DNA of 64,000 nt from an uncultured Pseudomonadota bacterium (GCA_963836045.1 CAWIIC010000003.1:2854-66853); one strand, 5' to 3'; counted from the first letter of the stretch, positions 3,977 through 39,942 are shown. Program-made: numbers and translations. The notes: a model not told the origin generated them from the letters alone.

Positions 3977-4020
3977 ACTCCAACTTACCATAATTATCAC
4001 TTAATTGCGGAGCACTACAC
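2871..4020 (-). mobile_element. IS630-family insertion sequence (~1.15 kb)
   Basis: Gapped, imperfect terminal inverted repeats: GTGTTCCGCACCTGAAATAGGTGATGATT (2871-2899) against the reverse complement of 3992-4020 (GTGTAGTGCTCCGCAATTAAGTGATAATT). TA dinucleotides flank both ends (2869-2870, 4021-4022), as expected for IS630/Tc1-type TA target duplication. The element encodes a DDE transposase. Confidence 0.85.
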
Positions 4021-7270: not shown

Positions 7271-7703
7271 CTCGCAGTGCAACTGTCGATGATTAACGCG
7301 TATTCTCAGTTGGGGCCTCCTACGGGATTTGGAGTTCGGACGCGATCGCTATCATGGGTGCAAGTGGGAACCAGGTCCTCACGTATCAGAACGTGCCGGC
7401 CTGGATCATCTCTCTCTGGGTCTGGGTTCGCTGTTGGCACGCCCGGGAGGATAGACAGCCACGAGGAATCAGTCGTGGTCAACGCCTCGGCTGGCCACCC
7501 CCTCATCAGATTTACGTAGGGACTGTTTGAGCTCAGGCGTGGAGTAACGCGGACTCTCGTCTATGGCGGCAACCAGCTACGTGGCTGATGGGATAAAGCT
7601 CGGACCGGACTTGCGGGGACTCGGGCTCGGCGAGCAACTTGGGCCAACCCCTTCGTTGTTCGCAGCCCAGAGTTTTTGAGAATCAGACCCCCGCTAAAAA
7701 CGC

Positions 7704-9660: not shown

Positions 9661-10101
9661 AGCCCGAACATTTCGACCGGCTAGATGTCGTGATGCACGC
9701 ATCTCGCCCACCACGAACGGGGGTTTGGTGTGCGCCACTCCCCAGGTGCTCCGCGGTTTCTCGGAGAAATGTTTTACTAGCGCCTTTGGCTTGTACCCGA
9801 CGATAAGAAACGGTACGAGAATTTTGGCGGTTCCATCGCGCCGCCATAGACGACCCCCTGCCTCGAGGCGGGTATCCACCGCCAGTAACAGGGGTCTGGA
9901 TTCTCTTCTCCAGTGACGGTGCCGGGCAGCTCCTGTGAGACTGACTCGACCAGGAAATATGCACGAAAGCATATTCGGCACGTGGAGGCGACCTCGTACC
10001 ACCAGATTGAGATTTGTCCTCCTGGATGTTTTCGCACATCGATCTTGTCACTGACCTTGCCCCGTTTTCGCGGACACATTTTTTCTGGACTCTCTAGGCT
10101 G

Positions 10102-10761
10102 CTAACGTGGTTCCGTGGCAGCCCTCCTCGTATGTTGCCGGACTGACGTTGCCGAGCGTGGTGTGCCGGCCGTCCCCTCCGCTGGGTCACAGATGAGATC
10201 CGTCGGGGTCGGTGCAGTCATCTCTACCATCAACTGGATGATGTGGCGAGGCGTGCGGAACTGGCCATTCTGTCCCGCCGATGCGATCTTGCTCAGCATG
10301 TACTCATAGAGATCACCTTTGGTGTCCCGTTCTTCCATAGGTACATCCGAGATCATGTCGACTACCTTCGCCAGCAGTGCGGGCGTTGGGATCGTGAAAC
10401 GCGCATCTCTCATGTGGTGCTGATAGGTTGAGCCGTCATCGCCAAGCATTCGGAGCCAGGGGAAAATGTGCTCGCTGACAACTACATACATGTCGGCAGG
10501 TGCGAGGTTCTTGAAGCGAGACCATCGAAAGTCGACGTATGGACGACCACGAGAGTCGGAACCTTCGGGGAACACAGCGCGCTCAATTGGGTCGCCCGTC
10601 CGGGCCGACCTGTTCTCCGCAAGGGTCTGGAGATCATCGAGCCGCCGCAAGAAGAGAAGGTAGGTGATCTGCTCGATGACTTCTAGCGGATTGGAAATTC
10701 CGCCCGACCAAAATGCGTCCCAGATGCGGTCGACCTGATTCTTGATGGCGCCTGTGATCAT
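10102..10761 (-). pseudogene. hsdM: Type I restriction-modification methylase HsdM, N-terminal ~200-aa fragment
   Basis: HsdM_N-type N-terminus (IWDAFWSGGISNPLEVIEQITYLLFLRRLDD) and the start of the N6-methylase domain (GQFRTPRHIIQLMVEMTAPTPTDLICDPA). The sequence breaks off where CGTAGFL should follow. No hsdS or hsdR gene is nearby. Confidence 0.8.
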
Positions 10762-11018
10762 CGGCTAGTTCTCCCCCGGGTTTGCGTTCCCAGAAAGTCT
10801 AAGTCGACGTCGTCCTGGCATGCGACCGCAATCCTTTCGAGTTGTTGAGCACATGCTGACTTAGCTCTGCCATCTCGCGTGCTAACCAAAGGGCCATCGG
10901 TGTCCACATGCTCCGCATGAAGCGACTGACAACGCTAGGAGACGACCGTCAGAGCCGAGGCTGGGTACCCGCGGACATCTCCGGACGCGTAATCGACGGG
11001 TTCCTCGGCAGCGATCAC

Positions 11019-11110
11019 GGCTGCAACGAGTATCGTGCCTCGCGTCTAATTGGCCGTGCTTGTTCTCATACTGCGTTGGCCGCAAGCGCGAACGAGACCC
11101 GTGACTATCT
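11019..11110 (+). repeat. Badly decayed tRNA-3'-portion module (Met-CAU-like)
   Basis: GTTCTCATACTGCGTTGGCCGCAAGCGCGAACGAGACCC (11062-) aligns with GTTCTCATAATCCCTTGGTCGCTGGTTCGAATCCGGCC of the 23.5-kb module. GGCTGCAACGAG upstream resembles the GGCTGCAAAAC arm repeat. Confidence 0.35.
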
Positions 11111-11141
11111 ACTGTGCCACTCTCCACCCAGGCGGAAAAAC

Positions 11142-11466
11142 TAATGCAATAGGTAATGCCAGGCCGAAAAGTAATGCAATACGTAATGCAAAACGAGTGA
11201 TCTACCGGAGTCTAGGAGCGTCCAGCGTGATTGCCGATGTCCACGAATCGTTTGCGGAACGCCATGTTTGGACTCACTTGGAAACGCCTGGATACAATGA
11301 GGTCGGTTTGCTAAACCGCTAAGGGGGTAACGCCCTTCGAGGGTTCGAATCCCTCCCTCTCCGCCACAGCCCTTTATTCCAGCCAAAATGCTGTCGGTAT
11401 CCTGCTCACTTCCGGTCGCGATCTCGTCTAGTTAACGCGCAAACACTGCAAAAGTACTGCAAAAGT
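11142..11466 (+). repeat. tRNA-3'-portion module, Ser(GCU) type, with flanking direct repeats (att-like)
   Basis: GTAATGCA(A) occurs 4x at 11142-11191. The core at 11303-11366 reads TCGGT-TTGCTAA-ACCGC, then a long variable arm with a 5-bp stem, GAGGG-TTCGAAT-CCCTC, and CCTCTCC-G-CCA. ACTGCAAAAGT occurs 2x at 11445-11466. There is no canonical D arm, and the candidate 5' acceptor strand pairs only 5/7. Confidence 0.7.
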
Positions 11467-11547
11467 TTCTTCACCCCGGGAACGTGAGGTAATGGCAGCA
11501 CAGCAACCCAGGTCCGGTACTCTTCCACCAGAAGCGGTCCACGGCTA

Positions 11548-12255
11548 TTGGATCAGATGTTCGCCGTCTGGATCATGCCGTCGCTCGTTGCAAGAGGTTT
11601 GACGCTCGAACGGTCTGAAATATCCCAGGCGTTGATTCTGCTAATACCTTCCATGCCTCCCACAGTGCATATCAACTCAGAGGCGGAGTTGGTCGCAGTG
11701 TTTGCTGCCGCAACCCGAGACATTTCACCGGGAGAACCGATCACTGGAGACGACGTCACAGAACTGGTTGGGATCCGTCCCCGCGAGGACCCCGGTGACT
11801 CCGGCTGGCTAGCATTCGCGACTGTCGGAAGCGAAATCATTGTTGGATGGGACGGCCGACGCAACCGCAAGAGCGCATCCCGACTCGTTGATCGAGCTCG
11901 CGAATTCCTTGCATGCGCCATCGACTCCGTGAGCAATGGCCGATTAGCGCCGGCGGTGGAGTGCGCATTCGCAGCCGCAGAACTAGGTGTCAAAGCTGAC
12001 ATGTTTCTTATGTTTGATCGACCGACGACGAAGCACTGGGAACGGGCCAACTGGTGGTCCGAGTGGGAACGGCTCGGAAACGCTCCGGACGGGACGGCAA
12101 GTACGCTGAGCCGTCTCTATTCTGAGCGTCCAAGTGCTCGATACGCCGAATCCCAAGTCAATGTTGATCCAGCCGAGATGTCATCATTGCTGGAATCGGT
12201 CTCGGTCCTGATCGAGCATGTGGCTGAACGGATCGCCGTCGAGCTGGTGCCCTAA
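11548..12255 (+). CDS. Hypothetical protein with HEPN-like C-terminal helical region
   Basis: The C-terminal half (ASRLVDRAREFLACAIDSVSNGRLAPAVECAFAAAELGVKADMFL...HWERANWW...RLYSERPSARYAE...LLESVSVLIEHV) follows the HEPN helix pattern. I cannot point to a clear R-x4-6-H motif. Confidence 0.4.
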   Translation: MDQMFAVWIMPSLVARGLTLERSEISQALILLIPSMPPTVHINSEAELVAVFAAATRDISPGEPITGDDVTELVGIRPREDPGDSGWLAFATVGSEIIVGWDGRRNRKSASRLVDRAREFLACAIDSVSNGRLAPAVECAFAAAELGVKADMFLMFDRPTTKHWERANWWSEWERLGNAPDGTASTLSRLYSERPSARYAESQVNVDPAEMSSLLESVSVLIEHVAERIAVELVP

Positions 12256-12268
12256 CTACTAGGTGGCG

Positions 12269-13000
12269 TCACTCAAGTTCGGGTTCACTCCGAGGCTTGC
12301 TGAACAGGGCATCCACGCGGTCGGCTGCATCTTTGTGTAGCGTGGGCAAGACGTGGCTGTAGGTGCCCAGCGTCAAGCTAATCGTGCTGTGACCCAACAT
12401 CTCTTGCACGACGCGTGGATGAATGCCTTCAGCAAGAAGTTGCGACGCGGCTGTGTGTCGTAGGTCGTGAACGCGGATGCGGGACAGGCTGGCCTTCTGC
12501 TTTTCGCACACCAATTTCGAGCGCGCGGACTTTCCGTCACCTGCCCAATGTGCGATGTATCCGAAAGAATTTTGACTCGAGTCGATGCCCAGTTCGTGGC
12601 AGACGGCGTGAATGCCGCATGAGTTCGCGCCAACTCCTATCGAAAGCGCATCCAGCGTAGCGAACACTGACGGAGTTGCTCGATCACTGCATTTCTCGAT
12701 GGATGGCGGCAACGTCAATGGCCCTGAAGGGCACCAGTGCAACACAAACTCCAAGGAAACGTCCCACATCACTCAATAGATGGAAGTGTTCCAACTGAAA
12801 CGTCTCGAGTCGATGACAGCGGCGGCACCTTCTGCGGTAGCGGTATAGCGTCGCTGTCGTGATCCAAACGCATTCGGGGGAACATGACTTCCAACCCGAA
12901 GGTCCGGCGTTCTGGGGTCCCCGCCAGTTGTTGAACACTCGATCACGCTGATACGCATTCGATGACAGCGCGATCGGTCCTTCGATTAGCTGGTGAGCTT
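12269..13000 (-). pseudogene. Tyrosine recombinase (phage-type integrase) remnant
   Basis: The C-terminal catalytic blocks are intact (VHDLRHTAASQLLAEGIHPRVVQEMLGHSTISLTLGTYSHV). The box I region is degenerate (ALSIGVGANS, where TGLR..E is expected). Upstream parts are scattered over two other frames (12773-12958, 12684-13124). Confidence 0.75.
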
Positions 13001-14861: not shown

Positions 14862-16376
14862 GTGGAGAGCGACACCGCCCACTTCTCTCTCTATCTTGGT
14901 GAAAGCGAGTCTCCGGAACCGCCATGGGTGGGTTTCTTGCGATCGGAGTTTCGCGATCTCCGCCCGGTTCCGGCGAGAAGCAATCTCGGGGCGGTGCTTC
15001 TCGTTCGACTCGCCGGCGAAGGTGAAGGCGAAGTCTTTGCATACGCCTTCGGATATGGTCGCCTGTTTCTGAATCGTCGGCGAATCGATCGCAGTTGGGG
15101 ATTGCGCGCCGCCCTAAATCTGACGAACCATGAACAACTTAAGTCGCTCACAACGAAGATCGTTGGCAGTAACACGCTGCACATGCAAAGTACTGCGACA
15201 AGGGATGACGCGGTCTTCACGTTCGAAATCGACACCGGGCGCAGTCTTTTGGGCGCCATAGAAGGACGGACACTTGATCCGGAAGGCTGGGGTAATCGCA
15301 TCTCAGGTGGGGATGCCGTGAAGTTCGCCCCATCAGTTTCCGTTCGCGAATTGGAGGAAGCGTGTCGAGCACTATTGATCGCACGGCGCGCAGACGACTA
15401 TAAGGCACATATTCCGTGGGCCGACAACATGTCTGAAGTGGACAACCTCGAGCTACTCGAAGAGTTGTCCTCCGCATCTATAGGCGAGATTCGGGCAAAT
15501 TCTGGAAAGTTTGAGATAGTCGCGCCGGCCATCCTCACCAACCAGGACTACGAGTACTTTCAGTACTCGCACGCGCGTGACCGCCAGCACGGGGTCCCGC
15601 GACGTGAGTTGCGCCTTATCGACTATTTGCAATATGTAAATCGCGGATTGCTGGACGTGGCAACCCTGCAGCGTCACGAGATCAGGGCCGTAAGTACTGA
15701 GGGGGAGGACGTTGAATCGTGGTCGGTGTGGAATTGCATTTCGGGCGTGCTCGAATTGCGCGGACAGTCTTTTGTGTTGGACGAAGGCAAGTTCTATCAA
15801 GTAGATAGTGACTTTCTCGCGGGATTGGATGGCTCGATCGATGGCCTCGACTCGCACCATCTGGAACTCCCGACACTCGCGGTTGGTGAAGCGGAAGAAG
15901 CGTATCTGCTACGAATTGCTGAAGACATGGCTGACATGCTCCTGCTGGATCAAAGACTCGCACGAATTGCTGGGGAAGATCCGATTGAAGTGTGCGACCT
16001 ACTTCGGACTTCCGGAGAACTCATTCACATGAAGAAGGGCTTTACGGGTGCCGGGTTGAGTCACCTATGTAGACAAGCGACAGGCTCAGCCGAAGCCTTG
16101 GCGACGAGCCCCGCCTTCCGGGACGCCGTCAGGGCCCGCATGGTGCGAATTGCCGATGACGGTGGTGGGGAAGTCATGATCTGGGTGGCGGGTCTGCTGA
16201 GGGATCCGTTTGTCCCGACGGAAGTAACTTTTGCCATCGCTGGGCATTGGGCAGGGCGAAGTGCATCCGCAGGACTACCGTTTGGAAGCAAGATGGGTTT
16301 GCGCACGGCCGCCGAAAATCTCCGCAGACGTGGATTCGTCCCGCGATTGATTCGAGTCGAAATCGAACGACCTTAG
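14862..16376 (+). CDS. TIGR04141/DUF6119-like 'sporadically distributed' protein (function unknown)
   Basis: A 504-aa intact ORF. The C-terminal block IEVCDLLRTSGELIHMKKGFTGAGLSHLCRQATGSAEAL matches my recollection of that family's signature (E.cD...g.liHvK..s.s..lSHL..Q). This is a family assignment from memory, not a search. Confidence 0.55.
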   Translation: MESDTAHFSLYLGESESPEPPWVGFLRSEFRDLRPVPARSNLGAVLLVRLAGEGEGEVFAYAFGYGRLFLNRRRIDRSWGLRAALNLTNHEQLKSLTTKIVGSNTLHMQSTATRDDAVFTFEIDTGRSLLGAIEGRTLDPEGWGNRISGGDAVKFAPSVSVRELEEACRALLIARRADDYKAHIPWADNMSEVDNLELLEELSSASIGEIRANSGKFEIVAPAILTNQDYEYFQYSHARDRQHGVPRRELRLIDYLQYVNRGLLDVATLQRHEIRAVSTEGEDVESWSVWNCISGVLELRGQSFVLDEGKFYQVDSDFLAGLDGSIDGLDSHHLELPTLAVGEAEEAYLLRIAEDMADMLLLDQRLARIAGEDPIEVCDLLRTSGELIHMKKGFTGAGLSHLCRQATGSAEALATSPAFRDAVRARMVRIADDGGGEVMIWVAGLLRDPFVPTEVTFAIAGHWAGRSASAGLPFGSKMGLRTAAENLRRRGFVPRLIRVEIERP

Positions 16377-16777: not shown

Positions 16778-16960
16778 GTACAGTGATTCGTACAGTAATG
16801 CGACGCGTCTAGGGATCTGCAGGGGCATCCAGGGGTGCATGCAATGTAGATAACTTGGCGTTATTCCGCCGTTGTTGGACATCAAGAAACGCCATTGGAC
16901 GTCCTACAAGTGTTCTCATAATACCTTGGTCGCTGTGCCGAATCCAGCCGGGCCCCAACC
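16778..16960 (+). repeat. tRNA-3'-portion module, Met(CAU) type, decayed
   Basis: GTACAGT 2x (16778-16796). The core at 16915-16957 reads CTCATAA-TACCT-TGGTC-GCTGT-GCCGAAT-CCAGC-CGGGCCC, a mutated copy of 23475-23519. The downstream CTTGTTTGCCC...GCCAAAAACAGC parallels the 23.5-kb copy. Confidence 0.6.
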
Positions 16961-17036
16961 TAACCTACATCCTTGTTTGCCCAGCAGTTTAGCCAAAAAC
17001 AGCATATCAACAATGGATTGCAATGCGGCCATCTAC

Positions 17037-17882
17037 TCAACATGAATGCTGATTTTGAGATTTGTGCAGTAGATGTACAGTGATGCCGACGCGGGATGGA
17101 CCAGCGGCCGCGTTCAGTACAGCACCAGCTTGTGCCTTATTGACCACCTTCCCGTTCTGAAATTCAATGTAGGCGTTAGCACCGCTGTTCCCCTCGGTCC
17201 AGGAGTAGATTGCAGTTTGGCTATCCCCGGATCCCGACTGCTCTGAGAGTGTCCCCGTTCCGAGCAATGACTGCACTTGCGCGAGCGTCATACCGATCTG
17301 CACAGCATCAAAGCTTCTTAGAGTCAATGATCCAGGGGTGGCGGGCTGCGGTGTAGTGGGTGTCGAAGGGACTGCGTCGAACGGTACGGTAATGGCTAGC
17401 GGTTCACTGACCAGATCAGCACTGATCTGCATTGTGCGTATATTCGATGTCGGTGGTGATGGAGTTCCTAAGGTCGCTACGATATCTCCCGGCCAGGTAC
17501 TCAGTTCTCCTGCAGTTTGTGTTTGCGCAGCATCGTAAAAGAGATCAATGGTCGCGGCACAGTAACTGTCGAGGTGGTTCGCAAAGAAGAAGTCCAACGC
17601 ATCACTAAGCCGTGTGTAACTCGATGCGTTTTCACTCACGACCGCTGCGTAAAATGGTGATTCGCAGATGCCGGGTTGCGCGCCATTTTGATGGGTCACC
17701 ACGTTGAGGTCGCTGACATTTCCTTTCGCAGCAATCAATCGTAAGTCAGCCGCGCTCCTCGGGACAGTCAAACTGGCTTGCGTCGAAGCGGGTTGTGAAG
17801 GCGTCGGCGTCTGCTTCTGGGGGTTGGAGTTCAATGCGGTTCCTGATGAGCCGCATCCAACTAGGGCCATGACCACTGCCAA
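17037..17882 (-). CDS. Lipoprotein with C-terminal DUF3862/BLIP-like domain
   Basis: Lipobox MAVVMALVGC. The C-terminus (FDAVQIGMTLAQVQSLLGTGTLSEQSG...AIYSWTEGNSGANAYIEFQNGKVVNKAQAG) fits the small beta-rich lipoprotein-domain pattern. Confidence 0.6.
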   Translation of the reverse strand: MAVVMALVGCGSSGTALNSNPQKQTPTPSQPASTQASLTVPRSAADLRLIAAKGNVSDLNVVTHQNGAQPGICESPFYAAVVSENASSYTRLSDALDFFFANHLDSYCAATIDLFYDAAQTQTAGELSTWPGDIVATLGTPSPPTSNIRTMQISADLVSEPLAITVPFDAVPSTPTTPQPATPGSLTLRSFDAVQIGMTLAQVQSLLGTGTLSEQSGSGDSQTAIYSWTEGNSGANAYIEFQNGKVVNKAQAGAVLNAAAGPSRVGITVHLLHKSQNQHSC

Positions 17883-17966
17883 ACCACGACAATCTCATGG
17901 AGCAATGGTAGCTAAGTGTTTACAGCTAGGCAGAGCTCTGTCAGCCGAGTCCGAAGCTGCTCCTTT

Positions 17967-18110
17967 GTCTCGCCTTCTGCAAGCAGTCTGAGTGTGTCAG
18001 AGGAAATCGAACACACTCAGAAATCGGGGAATTCCGTCACTCTTGGACAGACGTGGACACACTCAGACGTCATCGATGCGGTTTGCTAAACCGCTTAAGA
18101 TGCCTAGCAC
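17967..18110 (+). repeat. Fragmentary tRNA-3'-portion module: Ser(GCU) anticodon arm only
   Basis: AGACGTGGACACACTCAGACGTCATCGAT aligns with AGACGTGGAGAGACACCCCAAGATGCCTGATCAG of the 23.4-kb module. A perfect arm GCGGT-TTGCTAA-ACCGC follows (18078-18094). The variable arm is partly recognisable, and the T arm and acceptor are absent. ACACACTCAGA occurs twice direct and once inverted (17981-18067). Confidence 0.5.
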
Positions 18111-18116
18111 GCCTAG

Positions 18117-18900
18117 TTAGTTCACGTCGTTCTGCGGCAACTCTGCCACCTGTCGGAACCCGGCGTACACGGGGCCTCCCACCTCGTCGAGAATCTCTCG
18201 CGCCCATATTGTCAGCAGTTGATCGTTATCCTCGCACGCCAATCGCCTTCTCGCGACAACTAATGCGGCGGCTCTCTGAGGATCACACGCTCGGAGTGCG
18301 CGAATCTGACGCTTACCGCCTTCCGGGTACACGCCCCGCCGATCAAACAATAAGTCTGAGGCCGCGTCGATAATCCAACATCCGATACTGAGGCGCTCCT
18401 CGCGATCGTTGGAAGCACCGAGGTCTATCAGGGCGTCCGTGATTTTGTAGCGAAGAGCGTCAATCGTTCTTGCGTCTAGCCGACGCGGCCCGGCGTCCAG
18501 CAGAACCTTGGTTTCATGCTGAGTAGAAGAGGCCATATCTCTTCGATCCAGCAGAACGATGCCGTCGGCGACAATGGAACACAAAGCCACATGCCGGTCT
18601 CTCAGCTCTTGGTCACGAAATTGGGCCCACGCTGAATGCGTATGTACGAAGGCCTCAACCGGCCACCCCAGCTGAATGAAGGTTTCTCGGAACGGCGCCT
18701 CCGAGACATCGCCGAAGGACTACGATGTCGAGATCTGAGAATGGTGTCGCAGCAGAAGTCAGCACCGCCGATCCAAGGAAAGCTAGCTCAGCTGCTGGGT
18801 AGCGTTCGGAGACAATCCGGGTGGCCGCCTCGACGGCAGGTATTCGAGTCTTAGGCAGGCTCAACAGAGGCTGATACTGCTTTCTTGCGGTCGCGTCCAT
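18117..18900 (-). pseudogene. Pol-beta-superfamily nucleotidyltransferase (antibiotic-NTase-like), one frame break at ~18720
   Basis: NTase motif AFLGSAVLTSAATPFSDLDIVV (ORF 18655-19140). After a 1-nt shift the sequence continues as FGDVSEAPFRETFIQLGWPVEAFVHTHSAW...VALCSIVADGIVLLD, in frame with ORF 18117-18590. Confidence 0.65.
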
Positions 18901-22459: not shown

Positions 22460-23228
22460 GTGCAGACTCGGTTTCGGCAGAAGCTTGTTGACGCCTGGAG
22501 AATCCTTCCGGGCACTGCAATCTTGGAGGTTGGGTGCGGTCAGGGAGACATGACACTCGTGCTCGCGGCCGCAACGGGTGCAGATGGGCACGTCACTGCA
22601 ATTGACGCAGCAGACGAAACTTCGGGCTCACCGCTTACCTTTGCGAAGGCCACGGCGCGCATTCGCCGATCTCGTGTTGGAAAAGCAGTCTCCTTTCGAT
22701 TCGGCGTCGATGTTCTCGAGCCTGAAGGTGGTCCTGCCACGATCTCACTACGACTGCGCTGTGCTGGCTCACTCGCTTTGGTATTTCGCTTCCATGGACT
22801 TGTTGCAACGAACTCTCAAGCGAATGAAGGAGTTGGCCGATCGGCTTTATCTCTCAGAGTGGGACCTGACACCGACAAGGAAATCCCAGCTGCCACACTT
22901 TGCAGCGGCCCTAGTCCAGGGATGGACATCTGCCTGGAAACCCGATCGCCGCTGCAATATTCAGACACTTATGAGTCGACAGGCGATCGAGCGGCTTGTT
23001 CTGGATGCCGGCTGGACAATCGAAACCAATGTCTCCGTCGACAGCTCAGACCTTCAGGACGGCAGATGGGAGGTTCTCAACTGTCTCCAGATACTCAGCT
23101 CAGGAATCGGTAGGGACGACTCAACGACTATTGAGGGCCTGGACTTGGATAATGTGAAAATACTTCTCCAGCAGTCAGCGTCTGAGGCTCTGCCATCGTT
23201 TGCAATGCGTTGCCACCAACCGCAATGA
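22460..23228 (+). pseudogene. Class I SAM-dependent methyltransferase, one frame break at ~22730
   Basis: Motif I ILEVGCGQGD and VTAIDAAD lie in ORF 22460-23113. The continuation RSHYDCAVLAHSLWYFAS... lies in ORF 22578-23228. Confidence 0.7.
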
Positions 23229-27847: not shown

Positions 27848-30800
27848 CTAAGCGGCAGGTTTGCTCGTACGTGTCCAGGTGCCGGACACAAGTTGGGCTC
27901 GCTGCCCACAGAATTTATCACTCACCGTAGTGATGCTCAGAAGGCGACCGATGACCGTCCAATGGTAAGAGCCGGTGGGCGTGAGATCGGTTTGCTGTCC
28001 CTTGCAGAAGGGCATTGTCGTTCGTCCGGGAGGTCCGCCAAAGATGGTAAGCCCGCCGCTGTTGGTCGCAGTATAGTGTTCGGAAGCGCCGAGAATCAGT
28101 CGGTCGCGAGTGACTCTCAGCTCAAGATGCGTGGGTGAAACGAAGACATCCGCGCTGAAGGGAAGTCCGAGCTCGTAGCCCGCGCCAACTTCATAGTCTT
28201 CGGCTTTATAGTTCGCGGGGAGAGTCTTCCGTCGGTAGACGCCCACCAGATCGGCAGTCTTTGACGGGCCTGTAGCTCCCAGCCTCGCCTGTTTGCCGGG
28301 AAGGACAAACGCGGCGGCGTGCTCGGCGACGTTCAGGGCGTCAGTGGAGGCGGAGTTACCCATCACGATGACGGTGAGCCCCGCGCGAGGGAACCGCAGG
28401 TTGGCCGTCTGATAGTCGTACAGGTTGCCGGAGGTGTACACGACGCGGGATCCAAAGAGGTAGCCATTCTTCCAGCCGTCTGTCCATTCGACATGGCTGA
28501 TTCCTGGGTCGGAGGGAGCAGTTATCCCACGAGGAGCGACTGCCATTCTCGTCTGGGCCGGCGGCATGTACGTGCCGCTGAACAGCAGGTTATCGTACCT
28601 ATATAGGTCGTGAGGAGTAGAGTAGGCAGCGAAGTAGTCGTTGTATACCTGGCCGACATGCGCTCCGGAGGAATTGTAGTCCAAGGCCAGACGGCTGGAA
28701 CTGATGCCGTCGAACATCTGGTGGGCCAACTGCGGGACCTTGGCCACCAAATCTTGGTGGTTTCGCAGCCGGTTCCATGTGCCGTTGCCGTTGGGAATGA
28801 GGCCCGTCGGCATCCAAACGCCGGTGGGGTCTGACTGGGACACCACGCCAGGGTTGAGAATGGCCATGATCAGATTCGCGCAGGTCGTGTAGTGAACGCT
28901 TACGGAATGGTGAGGTTCGAGCGGAAGGGACTCGCATTTCGCCTCTGCCTGGACAATGTTGTTCCCGCGCGTGCCCCACCGATAGTTGGGAAGGCTCGAG
29001 GTGCCCTCAACAAGCTGCGCCGTCGTGATCTTGTGCCACTTGGCTGGACATCTCCCGACAAGGATGGCGTGGCACAGAATCGGTGCGTTCACGTTGGAGA
29101 TCCAGTCATATACCTTCTGACGCTGTGACACCTGCAGGGTGTCGGCAGTGATCAGGGCTGTCGTCGTGGCGTCGGCCAGCCCATACTCGGTGTTGGGTCG
29201 GTTGGGAATGTGAGCCGCTCGATTAGCCATGCCGTAGCCCTGGTCGAGAATCACCTTCCCCTTCTTGGCTACCAGCACCGTGCCACTCAACTGCCCCTGC
29301 GCGGCGGCACCGGACAGGTATGAAGACAGCGTAGCCGCGCTGGCATGGCCCGGTATCGACGAATACCCTAGCAACGAACCGAGCAGGACGGCAACGAGGG
29401 CAACGACCACGGCGGCCGTGAACCAGGGCTTCCGGATGAGCCGGGAGGGTCTGGACGCCGGCTGGGTTCCCAGCTCCTCGATGCTCCGCTTCATCTCCTT
29501 CATCGACTGGAAGCGACGACGGGGATCCTTATTCAGGGACTTCAGGATCACGGTGTCCCAATCTCCGGGAAGCTCCTGGCGGACGGAGCTGGGCGGCGCG
29601 GGCTCATCGTGCATCTGCTGGACCGCTATGGCCAGCGCGTCGTCGCCGTCGAACGGTGGACGGCCCGTCACCATGTGATACAGGACCGCACCGAACCCGT
29701 ACACGTCTGACCGAGCATCGACGTGCTTGCCTCTGACCTGTTCCGGGGACATGTACAGCGGCGTCCCCACTCGCATACCGGTCGTGGCGATGGTGCCCAT
29801 CATGGTGTCCACCGACAGAATGCGGGCGATGCCGAAGTCCGTCACCTTGACCCGATCTTCATCCAGGATCATGATGTTGTCGGGCTTCACGTCCCGGTGG
29901 ACGATCGACTGACCGTGGGCGTAAGCGAGTGCGTCGGCCGTCTGACCGGCGATCGATTTCGCCCGATCGAGGTCGAGCGGACTGTCATCGAGCTCTCTGG
30001 CGAGCGACCGGCCCTCCAGCAGCTCCATCACGATGCACGCGACGTGCTCCTCGGCGAAGCTGTCGTAGATGCGGACGATATTCGGATGGTCGAGTGAACG
30101 GAGGATCGCGCCCTCTTGTTGAAACCGGAGCAGGTCATCGAGGTCGATGCCGGCGCGAGCCAGCACCAGCTTGGCGGCCACCATCCTCTCCGTCTGTCGG
30201 TCGTACGCACGGAAGACGCGACCCATCGACCCGGCTCCGATCTCACCCTCGAGATCGAGGCGTCCACCCAGCGACCGGATGAGCTCATCTATCAATCGTG
30301 GACTGCCCTTGGTCCGTCGATAGACGAAGCCGGCAAACTCTTCGGACACCTCCCTCTGGCCCATCAGCTCGGCGACCAGGGCGGACGTCTCCTCCAATGA
30401 CAGCGGCCGCAGCGTTATGTACTGGGCCAACCGGTCTCGAGAGAGACGCTGGAGGGTGGCGGCCAGCGTCGGGTTGGTGTCGGCTAGACCAACATCGGAG
30501 AAGGCGCCGGCGAGAAGGGTCCGCGAGGCGCCGGTCGAGCGCGCGAGTGCCAGGAGAACACTCAAGGTCTGTGGATCGGCCCATTGAAGGTCGTCCAGGA
30601 CCAGCGCCACGGGAACCGATTGGGCGGTTCGAGCCAGGCTGTTGGCGAGAGCTGTGGCCACTTGCAGGTCGGTGCCGGTTCCGGCGGCAAGCTCGCTGAT
30701 TGCCTTCCATCCCTTCTCCGTGTCCAGGTCGGCAGCCAGCGAAATGCTGGAGCTTGACGGTGCGATCGCTTCGAGTATCGGGTGGTACAGACGGTTGAGG

Positions 30801-31289
30801 TCGTCGGGAGTGCATGTGCCCGTCAGGACGGCGAAGCCTCGATCGCCGGCATGGACGGTCAGCTCCTGGAGCAGTCTGGTCTTGCCGCATGCGGGTTCGC
30901 CGGCAACGAGCAGCAGGTGAACCCTTTCCTTCCGCTACCGAGTCGAGGATCGAGCCTATTCGTGCTACCTCAGGGTCGCGGCCGATGAGATTGGTCTCGG
31001 GAAGCGACCCCAGAAAGCGGCCACGGAGTTGGGAAGCGGACGAGTCGGTGGAATCGGCGCCGGTGAGCGCCGCACGGTGGAGGGCAGCACGATCGGCGTC
31101 CCCGAGGTCAAGGGCATCGACCAGCCGGCGGACGGTGAAGGCTCGGGGTGTGGTGTTTGCGCCTCGCTCGAGATCGCTGATGACGCGAACGCTGAGCTCA
31201 GCCCGCTCTGCCAGCTCCTCCTGGGTAAGCGCCGCCTCGGACCTGTAACGATGGAGGAGTGAGCCGAGGGTTGACGGGGTCGTTGTCAT
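27848..31289 (-). pseudogene. Giant signalling protein, copy A: XRE-HTH, STAND/AAA_16 ATPase, Hanks Ser/Thr kinase, TM helix, degenerate beta-lactamase-fold ectodomain; one 1-nt insertion from intact (~1146 aa)
   Basis: ORF 30285-31289 carries the HTH (LTQEELAERAELSVRVISDLERG). ORF 27848-30661 carries LVLDDLQWADPQT, the kinase motifs GAGSMGRV, VAAK, HRDVKPDN, DFG and SPE, the TM helix WFTAAVVVALVAVLLGSLLGY, and the beta-lactamase-like GTVLVAKKGKVILDQGYGMANR. One extra A at 30920/30921 (GGTGAACCC, against GGTGACCC at ~34400 in copy B) separates the two ORFs. Removing it restores GHLLLVAGEPACGKTRLL (Walker A). Confidence 0.85.
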
Positions 31290-31298
31290 GTCGTTCGC

Positions 31299-34200
31299 TC
31301 AGCCGGATTCTGACACTCGGGTCCACGATCCCGGCATCAGTTCAGCCCTGGCGTAGCAGCCGATGAAGCCCGGTCCCCAGTCAGTGACCTTATTGATGAA
31401 AAGATGCTTGCCTAGAAGAGACCAGTGGTAGTAGCCGGGAGACATGAGACCGGTCAGAGCTGGAGCGCACCCATGAAAGTCTTGTCCACCGGGCCGTGGA
31501 CCAAAGAGGGTTAAGGCGCCGCTATCTGCCGCCGTATAGGGCTGTTTCGCTCCAAGGATAACGTACTGCCTGTTGATCCGCAGTTCCAGGGTAGAATCCC
31601 CGTAGGTGCCTGTCCCGTTAGGAATCGAGGGTGGGAATCCTAGGACCGTAGCCGGCGAACTCGTCTGTTGATTCATAACCGAGATGTCAGCAGGTCGTTC
31701 CGTCCGAACGTACGTCCCGGGAAGATCGGCAACGGTGGGCGCTCCTGTTGCAGTCGTGCGAGCCCGCCGACCCGGCAGCATAAACGCCGCCACGTGCTCG
31801 GCTACATTCAAAGCGTTGGTCGAGGCCGTATTCGCCATGACGATTACTGCAGAGTTGAATTTCGGAAACCAGAGGTTGGCCGTCCCGTAGTCGTTTAGGC
31901 TGCCGGCAGTATACGTGATTCCTTGTCCGAACAAACGTCCCACCTTCCAGCCGTCAGCCCATTGGACGTTGTCAATTCCAGGATCTTTAGGCGCCGCCAT
32001 GTCGCGCGCCGTAACCAATCGGCGTGTGTTCGCAGGTGACATCAGGTTTCCAGAGAAGGGGAGACGGTCGTACTCATACAGATCTCTGGCGGACGTGTAT
32101 GCAGCGTAGTAATCGTTGTAAGAAGCGACGTGGTGTATGCCCGCGGCCGAGTAGTCGATGGCCAGGCGAGGATTCCCCGGCCCGTCGAAGAGCTGGCGAG
32201 CCAGGAATCGTGAGTGGTGACCGTCGAACGAGATCGTTCCTCGACCGCCCGGGAGGATACCAGTGGGCAGCCATTCCTCGTCGGTAGAGCGCAGGTTGTG
32301 TATAGTGGGAGCCACGAATCCGAGCAGAATGTCGTTGCAACTCGAATAGTCCACGCGATGCGAGTTTCTTCTTTTCATCGGCAAGAGATAACAATGGCCC
32401 TGAGCCGCAACCATGTTACCGCTGCTTTGACCCCTATGGTAGTCCGGCAGACCCGACGTCCCCTCGACCAGGTTTGCGATGGTGAGGCCCCGCCACTTGC
32501 GAGGACATCCGGGGCCGTAGAAGCGGTGATATGCTCGGTTACAGATGCTATAGCTGAGTCGCGTAATCAGGCCTGAAGCATTCGCAGGATGGATTCCCCA
32601 CTCGGCTTGTGTTCCCTGGAGCGCGTCCGCTACCAAGAGGGCGTTGGTGGTGGAGTCGGAGAGACCGTATTCCGTGTTCGCGCGGTTGGGGACGTGACCT
32701 GCTCGATTGGCATAGCCATACCCTCGGTCCAGGATCGTCTTCCCTTGTGTTGCTACCAGTACAGTACCGCTCAGCTGATCTTTGGCGGCCGCTCCGGCGA
32801 GATATGTGGCCAAGGTTGCTCCACGAGCCTGCCCCGCTGCTGCCGAGTAGCCAAGCATCGTGCTGATTAGGGCAAAGATGAGAAGACCTACTCCCGCCAT
32901 GGCGAACCAGCGGTTTCTGACGAGGGAGTGGGAGGTGTCGCTAAGCTGCGTTCTCAGTCCATCGATCTCGCGCTTCATCTCCTTCATCGATTGGAAGCGG
33001 CGACGCGGATCCTTGTTCAGTGACTTCAGAATCAGACGCATCCCAGTCCGCAGGAAGCCCGGTCGCACAGAACTTGGTCGCTCCGGCTGCTCGTGCATCT
33101 GCTGGACGGCTATGGCCAGCGCGTCGTCACCTTCGAACGGTGGACTGCCCGTCACCATGTGGTACAGCACCGCGCCGAAGCCGTACACGTCGGACCGAGC
33201 ATCGATGTGCTTGCCTTTGACCTGTTCGGGGGACATGTAGAGCGGGGTTCCTACTCGCATACCGGTCGTGGCGATGGTGCCCATCATCGTGTCCACCGAC
33301 AGAATGCGGGCGATGCCGAAGTCCGTCACCTTGACCCGGTCTTCATCCAGGATCATGATGTTGTCGGGCTTCACGTCCCGGTGGACGATCGACATGGACC
33401 GTGGGCGTAAGCGAGTGCGCCTCGGCCGTCTGGCCGGCGATCGACTTGGCGCGGTCAGGTCCAGCGGACCGTCGTCGAGCTCTCTGGCGAGCGACCGGCC
33501 CTCCAGCAGCTCCATCACGATGCAGGCGACGTGCTCCTCGGCGAAGCTGTCGTAGATGCGGACGATATTCGGATGGTCGAGTGAACGGAGGATCGCGCCC
33601 TCTTGCTGGAAACCGGAGCAGGTCATCGAGATCGATGCCGGCGCGAGCCAGCACCAGCTTGGCGGCCACCATCCTCTCCGTCTGTCGGTCGTACGCACGG
33701 AAGACGCGACCCATCGACCCGGCTCCGATCTCACCCTCGAGATCGAGCCGTCCACCCAGCGACCGGATGAGCTCATCTATCAATCGCGGACTGCCCTTGG
33801 TCCGTCGATAGACGAAGCCGGCAAACTCTTCGGACACCTCCCTCTGGCCCATCAACTCGGCAACCAGCGCGGACGTCTCCTCCAATGACAGCGGACGCAG
33901 CGTTATGTACTGAGCTAACCGGTCTCGAGAGAGACGCTGGAGGGTGGCGGCCAGCGCCGGGTTGGTGTCGGCTAGACCAACATCGGAGAAGGCGCCGGCG
34001 AGAAGGGTCCGCGAGGCGCCCGTCGAGCGAGCGAGCGCCAGGAGAACACTCAAGGTCTGCGGATCGGCCCATTGAAGATCGTCCAGGACAAGGGCCACCG
34101 GAACCGACTGTGCGGTTCGAGTCAGGCTGTTGGCGAGAGCCGTGGCGACCTGTAGGTCGGTGCCGGTTCCGGCGGCAAGATCGCTGATTGCCTTCCATCC

Positions 34201-34776
34201 CTTCTCCGTGTCCAGATCGGCAGCGACCGACACGCTGGAGCTAGGTGCGAAGGCTTCGAGCAGCGGGTGGTACAGCCGGTTGAGGTCGTCCGGCGTACAC
34301 GTGCCCGTCAGGATGGCGAAGCCTCGATCTCCGGCATGGACGGTCAGCTCCTGGAGGAGCCTGGTCTTGCCGGAGGCGGGTTCGCCTGCCACGAGCAGCA
34401 GGTGACCCTTTCCTTCCGCCACCGAGTCGAGGATCGAGCCTATTCGTGCTACCTCAGGGTCGCGGCCGATGAGATTGGTCTCGGGGAGGGAGCCCAGGAA
34501 GCGGCCACGGAGTTGGGAAGCGGACGAGTCGGTGGAATCGGCGCCGGCGAGCGCCGCACGGTGGAGAGTAGCTCGATCGGCGTCCCCGAGGTCAAGGGCA
34601 TCGACCAGCCGGCGGATGGTGAAGGCTCGGGGCGTGGTGTTCGCGCCTCGCTCGAGATCGCTGATGACGCGAACGCTAAGCTCAGCCCGCTCTGCCAGCT
34701 CCTCCTGGGTAAGCGCTGCCTCCGACCTATATCGACGGAGGAGTGAGCCAAGGGTTGACGGGGGCGTCGTTGCCAT
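31299..34776 (-). pseudogene. Giant signalling protein, copy B (tandem paralog), multiple frame breaks inside the kinase domain
   Basis: ORF 33343-34863 holds the HTH and an intact ATPase (GEPASGKTRLL). ORF 31299-33776 holds the kinase, TM helix and ectodomain. Relative to copy A there is +1 at 33602-33614 (CTTGCTGGAAACC vs CTTGTTGAAACC), +2 at 33391-33400 (GACATGGACC vs GACTGACC), +2 at 33417-33425 (GCGCCTCGG vs GCGTCGG) and -1 at ~33447-33468. The stop lies 9 nt before the copy A start. Confidence 0.85.
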
Positions 34777-34831
34777 TGGTGCTCGGGGAGCTTTGCTAGC
34801 CGGCTGGGGCGCACAGTGCCGGATAGTTCGA

Positions 34832-34860
34832 ATTATATAACAGGTGACAATCGCAGACAA
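34832..34860 (-). promoter_or_regulatory. Candidate sigma70-type promoter for the tandem kinase genes
   Basis: On the minus strand: TTGTCT (34860-34855), a 17-nt spacer, then TATAAT (34837-34832), about 55 nt upstream of the copy B ATG at 34776. Pattern match only. Confidence 0.3.
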
Positions 34861-35566
34861 CACGGGTGAGACCGAGCGTTCGACGGTTCAAAGACTCATT
34901 CGAGGTCGCTGGGTGGCTCACGGTCAAGGGTGTGTCCACGGAGCGCAGAGCCCCAACGTTGCCTACTTCCAGTAACTCGTTGTCATGCCTTCGTGACGGG
35001 ACACTCATGGCGGTCAGGTACTGGGCAACGAAGGGGTGGCAGTTCAGGTTGGCGGTGATGTGCGCCTCGGACACATACCTTCTGCGCCGCGCAAGCCAAG
35101 CTGCTTTTGCTTTGAGGAATGAGAGCACCGGGCCCGCGGACGGCTAAAGCCATCGTAAAACTGGGATCGGTGAGCTTCCTCCCGAGCGTGGGTAATGCTA
35201 CGTGCTAGTAAAATGCCGGTCAAATGATGGCTGGAGTTATGGGCAAATTGGCCGCCCAGTCTCAAACTTGACCTCAGTGGGCCAGCCGGCAACCCATGAA
35301 TCGCAGAGCGCACGCAGCAACTGAACCGCTAGACGAAGCGCCACGGCTCGCGTAGCTGTGGTCGCTTCAGGAAGCGAACCGTCGACTTCCCGAGCTCCCG
35401 GACCGACGCGTTAGACACCATTCGTCGGACGACCGTTCAAAACGGCTGCGACCAGCATGCCACGAGAACGTTTCTCCGGTAGATCGGGTTCTGGTTCTCG
35501 AAGCTTCACGCTTAACCCCCGATGCCCCGGATTCCCAACTCTCGTAACAACAAGGAGTAGCACGCC

Positions 35567-38835: not shown

Positions 38836-39942
38836 TCAGCTGTCCTCAGGGAACTCGGTTACCGTACGTTCGTCGATCCACCGGATTGAGCCGGGAGGCT
38901 CGATTTCATTTATTGCTTGCTTGATCTCCTCTTCCTTCGATGGGTCTCGCTGATCCCAGTGAACCACAAAGACGATCACGACGCCGTCCGGATCGCGGAC
39001 AGGTGCTTCAATAGTTCCCCAGTTGTAGCTCTTTACGAAGCCTCCACGACTGGTTAGAGCGCGCCTGGCCGCTGCCTGGTATGCCGGCGCTCTGATTACT
39101 TCGGCGAGAGAGTCGACCTCGAGCCGGATAGACACCTTGGCCGTCGCCATGTCACTCTCATGCACCGCCGCCGGTACGTCGGGATGCCCCTCGCTGACCT
39201 CCAAACGCGCTCGTTGTCCCCCTCTACTGACGATGTTGTAAATGATTCCAGCGTGTTTCCGCGGACGGCAATCAACATTGGGACACACTTTTGCGAACTG
39301 TCGAGCGAATTTGGAGTCACCATACGCTCGGACTGGAACGATCGTGAAGGCCGAGCCGAACGCCGAGTAAAACTTGTGCGACACCATAGCATCCTTCACC
39401 TTAATAAAGATTCCCACCGGTGCCACAGCTAACTGAACTCCAGTTTGCACTCCGATGTGATGGCCGTTAGCCGGCTCGTGCTCGGAGTTCGGATTGTGGT
39501 GCTTCGGGTCCTGCACGGGTAAACTGCCTGGCACGGTAGCCGCGCGTGCAACGTGGGCGCTTCGCGCCTCGACACGCTTTCTTCGAACCCGTGGCCGGGG
39601 GTGAGCCGCCCCGTTCTCAGCCTTCAATGACGCGAACCATTCCGTGTCAAACGGGAGCGTCCGCCGGGAGGCCCGTTCGCGGACGGTTGCCCAGAGTGCT
39701 GATGCCTGGTCTTCTTCATGACCGGCCGCGAACGCACCATGGTCGAGGTACAGGGTGATTATCTGTTTGAGCCGCTCCATCGCGGGGTACGAGAGGCCCG
39801 ACTCCCAGGCGTGGATGGATTGGCAGCTGACGCCCAGAATGTCGGCCAGATCCTGCTGCGTCAGGCCGATCCGCTTGCGCAGAGCTAGCACTTGATCAGC
39901 AAAGGAATAATCTCGAACTTCGTCAGAACGGCTGGTCGACAT
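38836..39942 (-). CDS. XRE-family HTH regulator fused to a glyoxalase/VOC-like domain
   Basis: N-terminus ALRKRIGLTQQDLADILGVSCQSIHAWESG. C-terminus IFIKVKDAMVSHKFYSAFG...GTIEAPVRDPDGVVIVFV (VOC beta-alpha-beta-beta-beta pattern). Confidence 0.65.
   Translation of the reverse strand: MSTSRSDEVRDYSFADQVLALRKRIGLTQQDLADILGVSCQSIHAWESGLSYPAMERLKQIITLYLDHGAFAAGHEEDQASALWATVRERASRRTLPFDTEWFASLKAENGAAHPRPRVRRKRVEARSAHVARAATVPGSLPVQDPKHHNPNSEHEPANGHHIGVQTGVQLAVAPVGIFIKVKDAMVSHKFYSAFGSAFTIVPVRAYGDSKFARQFAKVCPNVDCRPRKHAGIIYNIVSRGGQRARLEVSEGHPDVPAAVHESDMATAKVSIRLEVDSLAEVIRAPAYQAAARRALTSRGGFVKSYNWGTIEAPVRDPDGVVIVFVVHWDQRDPSKEEEIKQAINEIEPPGSIRWIDERTVTEFPEDS

Follow-up and report, generated by a model that had tools for sequence, protein, structure and literature searches.

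The window, that is, the whole 64,000-nucleotide stretch of DNA that was analysed, belongs to an uncultured Chloroflexota genome and contains two homologous minus-strand genes, of which copy A runs from 34776 to 31299 and copy B from 31289 to 27848. They are arranged head-to-tail, 9 nt (GCGAACGAC) separating the TGA of copy A from the ATG of copy B, and this close spacing, reported in a preliminary description of the locus, was confirmed on the sequence. The same description presented both copies as proteins of about 1150 aa, which is correct after frame correction, although in the window each is split into two ORFs; it had spoken of a "frame-corrected" translation, yet gave both copies at that length. 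The features of the pair are the following.

34832..34860, minus strand: promoter-like site TTGTCT-17-TATAAT, 10/12 consensus matches only, about 56 nt upstream of the copy A ATG; possible promoter of the A-B pair
31299..34776, minus strand: copy A, frame-corrected 1157 aa; ORFs in the window 33343-34863 (506 aa) and 31299-33776 (825 aa)
34564..34752, minus strand: copy A XRE-type HTH (residues 9-71), Pfam HTH_31 47 bits
33757..34473, minus strand: copy A AAA_16/STAND-type P-loop NTPase with helical lid (residues 102-340), AAA_16 83.7 bits
32982..33738, minus strand: copy A Hanks kinase domain (residues 347-597), Pkinase profile, broken by indels
32850..32906, minus strand: copy A TM helix (residues 623-641), from hydrophobicity
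31302..32822, minus strand: copy A ectodomain, PBP/beta-lactamase fold with C-terminal beta-barrel (residues ~651-1157), PF00144 40.5 bits
27848..31289, minus strand: copy B, frame-corrected 1146 aa; ORFs in the window 30285-31289 (334 aa) and 27848-30661 (937 aa)
31080..31268, minus strand: copy B XRE-type HTH (residues 8-70), Pfam HTH_31 46 bits
30269..30989, minus strand: copy B AAA_16 NTPase with lid (residues 101-340), AAA_16 85.4 bits, Walker A GEPACGKT
29498..30250, minus strand: copy B Hanks kinase domain (residues 347-597), Pkinase 184 bits, uninterrupted
29366..29422, minus strand: copy B TM helix (residues 623-641, FTAAVVVALVAVLLGSLLG), from hydrophobicity
28259..29338, minus strand: copy B PBP/beta-lactamase-fold ectodomain (residues ~651-1010), from PF00144, alignment and model; four invariant Cys
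27851..28258, minus strand: copy B C-terminal beta-barrel tail (residues ~1011-1146), from alignment and model; two invariant Cys and two invariant Trp

In both frame-corrected copies the order is XRE HTH, AAA_16 NTPase, Hanks kinase, one TM helix, beta-lactamase/PBP-fold domain and beta-barrel tail, and all four Pfam families exceed their curated cut-offs. The domain order and membrane topology proposed earlier were right according to the Pfam matches and the hydrophobic helix; the motifs quoted at that time are found in the sequence, and the HMM search of the frame-corrected proteins upheld the HTH and ATPase calls above the Pfam cut-offs. The HTH_31 profile (XRE-family HTH, PF13560; cut-off 27 bits) is accompanied by a match of 33–35 bits to HTH_3 (PF01381; cut-off 23 bits), and in the AF2 model helices 8-19, 24-30, 35-43, and 51-61 form a helical bundle with pLDDT above 90.

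The NTPase of copy A is uninterrupted and carries the motifs LIGRDPE, GEPASGKT (Walker A), and LVLDDLQWAD (Walker B), while the AAA_16 profile match in copy B spans residues 101-255 with 85 bits against a cut-off of 32.6. LIGRDPE is an hhGRExE-like motif, and in the alignment of 21 sequences R104, the Walker A residues G130, G135, and T137, and D232 of Walker B are invariant; the Walker-A lysine is absent in two family members, and NTP binding is thus not required throughout the family. The N-terminal AF2 model (pLDDT 90) consists of a 5-stranded NBD and a 3-helix lid, the kinase beginning at residue 345, and its NTPase gave the best Foldseek matches with ORC/Cdc6 and with the plant NLRs ZAR1 and NRC. 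No winged-helix domain is seen in this model, so that the module falls short of the full NOD of STAND NTPases, and TPR, WD40, or LRR repeats were not detected by Pfam in either frame-corrected copy. The designation as a STAND-type ATPase therefore stands as far as the AAA_16 profile, hhGRExE, and Walker A/B motifs are concerned, but for a minimal module that lacks both the winged-helix domain and the repeat arm, and it is uncertain whether the modelled NBD and lid would oligomerise in a STAND-like manner.

The kinase domain matches Pkinase (PF00069) with 184–187 bits in both frame-corrected copies against a cut-off of 31.7, and copy B keeps K373, E392, D466, N471, and D484. Invariant in the 21 sequences are the G-loop glycines G351, G353, and G356, K373, E392, D466, N471, D484-F-G, and R592, together with T499, T502, and T503 of the activation loop; in the HRD motif (H464-R465-D466) the arginine is present in 20 of the 21. 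Judged from these residues, the intact kinase is apparently active and regulated through its activation loop. It is followed by a single strong hydrophobic helix (623-641, Kyte-Doolittle 2.5) flanked by R/K on the N-terminal side, a positive-inside arrangement.

The Pfam Beta-lactamase family (PF00144) is matched by residues 663-806 of copy B and 869-989 of copy A with 38–40 bits against a cut-off of 27. The ectodomain model (pLDDT 74) was matched by Foldseek to Pab87, 3tg9, SurE, FmtA/Flp, DltE, AmpC, and R61 with E-values of 1e-14 to 1e-10, and the alignments with Pab87 (2qmi), SurE (6ksu), and IS11 (7spn) cover two domains in 525–570 columns. The beta-rich tail of about 130 aa noticed previously is indeed present and corresponds to the C-terminal barrel that accompanies the PBP-fold domains of Pab87 and SurE. 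The catalytic S-x-x-K is absent: where Flp has S-N-T-K and 3tg9 has S-G-C-K, copy B has D-A-T-T and copy A has D-S-T-T; its position is variable across the 21-sequence alignment, and the third motif is Y-T-S-G in place of K/H-T/S-G. Of the earlier assignment as a serine-hydrolase/PBP-like domain the fold is thus retained, but not the serine hydrolase, and because the catalytic motif is lost the ectodomain probably functions in ligand sensing and not as an enzyme. Six Cys are invariant across the ectodomain and tail in the family alignment, which fits an extracytoplasmic location, and in the best explanation the PBP-fold domain contains disulfides.

Approximately 30 full-length public proteins of 1113–1238 aa, including P0001 and P0022 (the latter on a 2.35-Mb MAG contig), combine HTH, AAA_16, Pkinase, and Beta-lactamase in one chain, and the fusion is thus real and was not created by the frame correction. 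Within the family the HTH-ATPase part is accordingly not a normally separate gene. The NTPase-kinase core recurs in more than 100 clusters, joined there to other ectodomains (NHL/SGL propellers, Bmp/PnrA-like, DUF6923) or other N-termini (BTAD; HTH with cyclase), and BTAD-AAA_16-Pkinase-NHL variants also occur. The family is found mostly in soil metagenomes and is linked to Chloroflexota. No curated NCBIfam model reaches its cut-off on the proteins and the literature search found no paper describing the arrangement, which agrees with its having been called unfamiliar; it is nevertheless not a one-off, being one ectodomain variant among these clusters.

With the N-terminal 345 aa as query, phmmer returned 229 representatives at E<=1e-30, where the non-kinase representatives, and the closest non-kinase relatives, are HTH_31-AAA_16-TPR proteins of roughly 1000 aa. 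The best explanation is that the HTH-NTPase module was derived from cytoplasmic XRE-AAA_16-TPR regulators and that the TPR arm was swapped for the kinase, TM helix, and sensor. Copies A and B share 89–99% DNA identity over nt 1-1640 and about 55% from the TM helix outward; at the amino acid level the identities are 95, 96, and 93% for the HTH, NTPase, and kinase and 38, 52, and 39% for the TM helix, PBP fold, and tail, respectively. Such a homogeneous cytoplasmic module would reflect either gene conversion or a recent shared origin.

The interruptions differ between the two copies. In copy B one extra T at 30921 (GGT-T-CAC, +1) lies just before Walker A, between AEGKG and HLLLVAGEPACGKT, and the frame that is read after it is open from 30934. 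In copy A four frameshifting indels, at ~33609 (+1), ~33456 (-1), ~33421 (+2), and ~33396 (+2), are all located in the kinase N-lobe, with a compensated pair at ~33058/33040 also within the kinase. The region of ~33690-33200 is a fine-scale mosaic of bases typical of copy B and of copy A of the related contig L002 (99% identical to the window), and the indels coincide with switches between A-like and B-like bases every 5–15 nt; because of this setting the cluster most likely arose as an artefact, mixed haplotypes or paralogues having been merged into one consensus. The single insertion in copy B may be real.

It is possible, though rather unlikely, that both copies are true pseudogenes of a family decaying in this lineage, with only fragments encoded, namely, receptor kinases truncated at the N-terminus and, from copy A, a free HTH-NTPase. 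The extra T at 30921 is outside any long homopolymer and is common to the window and L002, which differ at 1% of sites, and a comparison of the window with 10.4 kb of Logan contigs from run ERR11594399 gave 0 indels; the shared T and the latter comparison speak for some of the frameshifts being genuine. On the source contig a third paralogue fragment has frameshifts too, a split gene and a remnant made up of TM helix and ectodomain, with several changes of frame, are found on the related contig L088, and the closest relatives (60–70% identity) are likewise fragmented, so that the clade could be truly decaying. However, apart from the indels no decay is visible, since the corrected reading frames run without in-frame stops and every catalytic and structural invariant is kept. 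L002 carries different indels within the same 400 nt of copy A, and such a clustered difference at 99% identity does not suit neutral decay; elsewhere single-base indels separate the two assemblies at a rate of about one per 2 kb, a methyltransferase ORF is broken in the window but intact in L002, and most JGI-derived family members are intact.

Two further readings concern the function of the proteins. The family might be not a transcription regulator but an NLR-like conflict or self/non-self sensor, where diversified extracellular sensors trigger a kinase and STAND effector switch and the HTH is autoregulatory only; paralogue arrays with a homogenised signalling module and diverging ectodomains, the recurrence of tandem arrays among relatives, the variety of ectodomains (NHL, Bmp, DUF6923, PBP-fold), the similarity of the NBD to plant NLRs, and XRE-NB-ARC genes adjoining one homologue are all in keeping with it. 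This is judged improbable, as Pfam recognised no effector or death domain, PADLOC matched known anti-phage defence proteins only through generic kinase models (residues 350-625), the N-terminal module has its nearest relatives in HTH-AAA_16-TPR proteins of the regulator type, and the neighbourhood shows no evident defence genes. Least credible, to the point of near dismissal, is an active penicillin-binding or serine-hydrolase ectodomain that senses beta-lactams by acylation in the style of BlaR1/MecR1: despite the Pfam match above cut-off and the fold shared with AmpC, R61 DD-peptidase, and FmtA, both copies have D..T in place of the Ser nucleophile and Lys general base, which are unconserved in 21 members, and the third motif is also altered. 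The best reading, which we hold with slightly more confidence than doubt, is that the genes are tandem paralogues from a modular signalling family with links to Chloroflexota, and that their product is a one-chain counterpart of the AfsK-to-AfsR pathway.

Bacterial Hanks kinases usually reach transcription by an indirect and promiscuous route. For the tandem paralogues considered as such a single-chain pathway, an extracellular ligand, plausibly a peptide or a cell-wall-like molecule, would bind the pseudo-enzyme ectodomain and activate the kinase via dimerisation and activation-loop autophosphorylation; the kinase would then phosphorylate, in cis or in trans, the NTPase/HTH module to which it is fused, altering the nucleotide state, oligomerisation, and DNA binding of that module, so that transcription would be controlled straight from the membrane. 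For the signalling direction, the phosphorylation target, and DNA binding alike, this scheme draws on the domain anatomy and on the precedent of AfsK, which phosphorylates the NOD of AfsR, including the Walker-A threonine, and thereby raises its ATPase activity, oligomerisation, and DNA binding (PMC10936776). The genomic context offers no obvious partner or target in the form of an FHA protein, PP2C phosphatase, or evident regulated operon. A wider view, put forward only tentatively, is that Chloroflexota possess single-chain membrane-to-DNA receptors with swappable sensors (PBP-fold, NHL, Bmp, DUF6923), whose kinase phosphorylates its own STAND NTPase and XRE HTH, as in a one-component Ser/Thr-kinase pathway with AfsK and AfsR fused, and whose tandem arrays have signalling modules homogenised by gene conversion, the ectodomains diversifying like a receptor repertoire.

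The action of phosphorylation on STAND switches is still unsettled, even for AfsK/AfsR, and a natural fusion, by which sensor, kinase, NTPase, and DNA-binding domain are permanently paired within one polypeptide, makes a tractable model in which kinase-substrate specificity is not in doubt. It is also a scaffold with exchangeable extracellular sensors, and the pair illustrates the concerted evolution of a signalling module beside diverging receptor domains. The practical message for the window is that both genes are interrupted and that their annotation as genes or pseudogenes depends on the accuracy of the assembly.

Among known systems, the XRE-HTH/AAA_16/TPR regulators (~1000 aa) align with the N-terminal 345 aa from end to end (36–45% identity, E 1e-40 to 1e-58) and likewise carry the LIGRxxE, Walker A, and Walker B motifs, but have a TPR sensor arm where the present proteins have the kinase, TM helix, and extracellular domain. 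Like these proteins, the PASTA kinases PknB/Stk1 cross the membrane once, the Hanks kinase lying in the cytoplasm and a sensor connected with cell-wall biology lying outside; PknB_PASTA_kin (NF033483) is the best NCBIfam match of the kinase domain, at 302 bits against a cut-off of 450 and with the kinase domain alone matched, whereas PASTA repeats are lacking here and the 345 aa of HTH and NTPase ahead of the kinase are absent from PknB. The PknK/MalT-like LAL arrangement is kinase, AAA_16, repeats. PknK also combines Pkinase with an AAA_16 NTPase, but in the present proteins the NTPase precedes the kinase, a membrane anchor is present, and the HTH is an N-terminal XRE domain in place of a C-terminal LuxR HTH or repeats; the kinase-then-NTPase order was shown by only two proteins among the homology matches.

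Pab87, SurE, and the family VIII esterase IS11 resemble the ectodomain in the PBP fold with C-terminal barrel over the aligned columns given above, at 12–15% sequence identity, and differ in that the present domain has lost SxxK, has additional Cys pairs, and is attached to a TM helix and kinase. BlaR1 has a PBP-fold sensor with an acylatable serine and signals via a zinc protease, and ToxR/CadC have no kinase or NTPase; ToxR/CadC and BlaR1/MecR1 likewise couple an extracytoplasmic sensor to a DNA-directed output that lies within, or starts from, a single membrane protein, but share no homology with the present proteins beyond fold class. In AfsK/AfsR of Streptomyces the three functions likewise occur together, as a Hanks kinase whose sensor region is C-terminal, an NTPase of the STAND type, and a DNA-binding domain. 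The DNA-binding domain of AfsR is a SARP domain in contrast to the XRE HTH, its NOD with TPR is cut here to NBD and lid without the TPR arm, the sensor differs from that of AfsK in being a PBP-fold ectodomain, and all functions are gathered in one membrane-anchored chain.

The single-chain architecture of XRE HTH, AAA_16 NTPase, Hanks kinase, TM helix, PBP-fold ectodomain and barrel tail is recurrent and not unique, and in the window it is interrupted in both of its tandem copies, copy A upstream and copy B downstream. The mechanical ORF listing of the window, by which the pieces of the copies were defined, gives four ORFs at the locus instead of two, and the frame breaks were placed by three-frame translation together with DNA alignment of copy A against copy B.

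33343-34863, minus strand: ORF piece of copy A (506 aa)
31299-33776, minus strand: ORF piece of copy A (825 aa)
~33609, 33456, 33421 and 33396, minus strand: copy A indels of +1, -1, +2 and +2 nt, all within the kinase N-lobe
~33058/33040, minus strand: compensated indel pair of copy A
30285-31289, minus strand: ORF piece of copy B (334 aa)
27848-30661, minus strand: ORF piece of copy B (937 aa)
30921, minus strand: copy B break, one extra T (GAA GGA AAG GGT T CAC CTG)
~56 nt upstream of the copy A ATG, minus strand: promoter-like site TTGTCT-17-TATAAT

The extra T of copy B falls between ...AEGKG and HLLLVAGEPACGKT. With the indels removed, copy B comprises 1146 aa and copy A 1157 aa with zero internal stops, so that the two ~1150-aa proteins of the preliminary description stand as to length after frame correction, but not as uninterrupted genes; its 9-nt gap is found between the TGA of copy A and the ATG of copy B. 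The Pfam search with curated cut-offs was run on the frame-corrected proteins and gave the following modules (copy B residues unless marked).

8-70: HTH_31, above the cut-off
101-255: AAA_16, above the cut-off
347-597: Pkinase, above the cut-off
623-641: one strongly hydrophobic TM helix with basic residues N-terminal to it
663-806 (copy B) and 869-989 (copy A): Beta-lactamase, above the cut-off

Thus the HTH, ATPase, kinase and beta-lactamase-fold assignments made earlier by eye, as well as the one TM helix, were borne out. Because of the basic N-terminal flank of this helix the HTH, NTPase and kinase are predicted to be cytoplasmic and the C-terminal 500 aa to lie outside, and six cysteines invariant in the C-terminal part of the family alignment fit an extracytoplasmic ectodomain.

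The fusion itself is real. Among 5.8 billion protein clusters searched, about 30 full-length proteins (1113-1238 aa) have the identical Pfam set and 42-59% identity to copy B over 99-100% of its length. Two intact homologues are each encoded by a single gene, P0022 with 1117 aa on a MAG contig of 2.35 Mb and P0001 with 1153 aa; the HTH-ATPase part is therefore not normally a separate gene in this family, and artificial joining of two genes is ruled out by the existence of these intact homologues. When 254 collected proteins were classified with HMMs made from the family alignment, the HTH-NTPase-kinase order was present in 78 and the NTPase-kinase order in 37 others, with the PBP-fold domain following in 39 proteins of these two kinds. 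On the same cytoplasmic module NHL/SGL beta-propellers, a Bmp/PnrA-like binding protein or DUF6923 serve as alternative ectodomains, while alternative N-termini occur in BTAD-AAA_16-Pkinase-NHL and HTH-cyclase-AAA_16-Pkinase-NHL proteins. The arrangement, previously regarded as unfamiliar, is undescribed in surveys of kinase architectures and in the full-text literature searched, whose coverage excludes most subscription journals, but it is one recurrent form of a modular family. The kinase domain alone is matched by NCBIfam models, none of which reaches its cut-off, and the automated JGI names of the members are a plain list of component domains. The family is built from known kinds, namely a receptor Hanks kinase and a STAND regulator.

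Regarding its origin, the N-terminal 345 aa served as query in an exhaustive phmmer search of 1.84 billion representatives, which returned 229 proteins at E<=1e-30. Apart from kinase fusions, these are HTH_31-AAA_16-TPR proteins of ~1000 aa that align with the query over its whole length. In the simplest history suggested by these sequences, a cytoplasmic STAND regulator exchanged its TPR arm for a kinase followed by a TM helix and a sensor. The scan of the genome collection with copy B, in which matches to the widespread AAA_16 peptide DDLQWADP prevailed, gave only distant AAA_16/kinase loci (<=37% identity) and zero close relatives. XRE-STAND genes cluster around the family in at least one genome: on contig L084 an 838-aa HTH_31/NB-ARC/HTH_77 gene (10037-12553) lies directly downstream of P0001, with more XRE-AAA_16 genes close by. 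In the window a 368-aa ORF at 38836-39942 (minus strand) has an N-terminal XRE HTH (HTH_3) that matches the family HTH profile weakly (E 6e-4), and no other family module.

The breaks in copies A and B would mark true pseudogenes or artefacts. The extra T of copy B, which is found in the window as well as in L002, an independent 667-kb ENA contig 99.0% identical to the window, favors pseudogenes, as does the comparison of the window with 10.4 kb of identical or nearly identical Logan contigs of run ERR11594399, which revealed 0 indels. However, comparison of L002 with the window outside the locus shows about one single-base indel every 2 kb. One of these indels, an extra T at 22726, breaks a Methyltransf_23-type ORF of the window (22460-23228), leaving overlapping frames of 242 and 224 codons, while its L002 counterpart is one 280-codon frame called as a 255-aa gene; the window or the strain behind it thus has frameshifts beyond the two copies. 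Further, L002 copy A has different indels within the same 400 nt, and in the four-way alignment the base type of copy A at ~33690-33200 flips between L002-A-like and B-like every 5-15 nt, with the indels exactly at the switches (e.g., CGG TTT / C CAG, the slash marking the switch). Such a mosaic arises when two haplotypes or cross-mapped paralogues are merged into a column-wise consensus; neither neutral decay at 1% divergence nor a clean conversion tract would give it. The nearest relatives, which share 60-70% identity and come from the same style of assembly, are split as well, and most JGI-derived members are intact. According to these data true pseudogenes are unlikely and the copy A indel cluster is probably an artefact, while for the copy B insertion the chances of an artefact are about even.

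Two other explanations were rejected: programmed frameshifting at the copy B site, since GGT-T-CAC would not permit the slippery re-pairing that a +1 shift needs, and DGR-type hypermutation behind the copy A mosaic, since the differences show no adenine specificity and agree with the sequence of the neighbouring paralogue. Exact-product look-ups gave no record for the 825-aa ORF, the 334-aa ORF or P0006. At 4020-5516 and 5330-6139 (minus strand) the ORF of an RCC1-repeat protein and the same-strand ORF next to it share ~190 nt, and this pair may be another frameshifted gene.

The copies share 89-99% DNA identity over the first ~1640 nt and ~55% from the juxtamembrane region onward; at the protein level the HTH, NTPase and kinase are 95, 96 and 93% identical, the TM, PBP fold and tail 38, 52 and 39%. 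These values point to a signalling module under concerted evolution, or of recent shared origin, beside old divergent sensors. Head-to-tail arrays are also present in relatives. In one related genome (L088, ERZ25039590 contig_19768, 1995-7404) a remnant of TM helix and ectodomain, its frame changing several times, stops 4 nt ahead of a 667-aa HTH-AAA_16-kinase ORF, which a 1-nt deletion (AGC-CAT) parts from its 509-aa ectodomain ORF; the TM helices of the remnant and the downstream gene are identical. Outside the window, the source contig (388,556 bp) holds one more fragment of this PBP-fold ectodomain, from a third paralogue (P0381, 356 aa, 45% identical to copy B, C-terminus out of frame); within the window the fragment matches copies A and B only.

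The genes around the pair are unrelated (AI-2E transporter, sugar ABC system, APH-family kinase, sigma factor, hypothetical proteins), and neither an FHA protein nor a PP2C partner is present in this neighbourhood. The neighbouring mannitol dehydrogenase is matched at 100% identity by an entry on a 388,556-bp NCBI/ENA contig; its top named relatives are Chloroflexota MAGs (71% identity), then Herpetosiphonaceae and Roseiflexaceae, and two BTAD variants of the family carry Chloroflexota names. At 14862-16376 (plus strand) a 504-aa ORF gives a nearly full-length DUF6119 match (E 9e-100). Opposite window position ~23730 L002 has a ~1.25-kb insertion (16937-18193) with IS630-like fragments (HTH_23/HTH_28 and DDE_3 pieces), absent from the window, which is a strain-level mobile-element difference.

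Across 21 sequences the kinase G-loop, K373, E392, D466, N471, DFG motif, R592 and three activation-loop threonines are invariant, and the domain is an RD kinase, predicted active from these residues. The NTPase motifs LIGRDPE (hhGRExE-like), Walker A and Walker B are conserved across the family, the Walker lysine being missing in two members of the alignment. In the AF2 model of residues 1-345 (pLDDT 90) the HTH forms a helical bundle, the P-loop core has five strands, and no more than three lid helices precede the kinase; winged-helix domain and repeat arm are absent. Structurally the model is best matched by ORC/Cdc6 and by the NODs of plant NLRs (TM ~0.45). Thus the STAND-type ATPase of the preliminary description is STAND-related by sequence but, as modelled, a minimal module.

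The ectodomain model (pLDDT 74) matches PBP-fold proteins, and its longest structural alignments are with the two-domain Pab87, SurE and IS11, which likewise combine a PBP fold with a C-terminal barrel and so account for the beta-rich tail noticed earlier. The proposed serine-hydrolase/PBP-like domain is confirmed in its fold but not as an enzyme, because D-A-T-T in copy B and D-S-T-T in copy A stand in place of the nucleophile and base of SxxK. It is therefore a pseudo-enzyme, and the reading as an active beta-lactamase was rejected; this position is not conserved among family members. Most plausibly, the domain would be a sensor that binds a ligand. Word-based searching with the ectodomain by itself found only 16 proteins, essentially all from the same kinase family, besides two distant DUF3471-plus-beta-lactamase hydrolases.

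As to function, the boldest reading, a Ser/Thr-kinase pathway fused into a single component whose sensors can be swapped, is rather less likely than not. A BlaR1-like acylation sensor is contradicted by the lost serine and highly improbable, and an NLR-like conflict sensor is a doubtful candidate; PADLOC matches are limited to the generic kinase domain. In the AfsK/AfsR system the Hanks kinase AfsK phosphorylates the NOD of AfsR, a protein composed of DNA-binding domain, NOD and TPR arm, at sites including the Walker-A threonine, which alters ATPase activity, oligomerisation and DNA binding (PMC10936776). From this precedent and the BTAD variants a four-step mechanism is proposed, in which a ligand would bind the ectodomain, the kinase would be switched on, the NTPase/HTH module would be phosphorylated in cis or in trans, and DNA binding would be altered at the membrane. 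AfsK acting on AfsR is the closest functional analogue, to which the BTAD variants bring the likeness closer, whereas in the present family a single chain, anchored in the membrane and topped by an extracellular sensor, comprises the kinase together with the NTPase and the DNA-binding domain.
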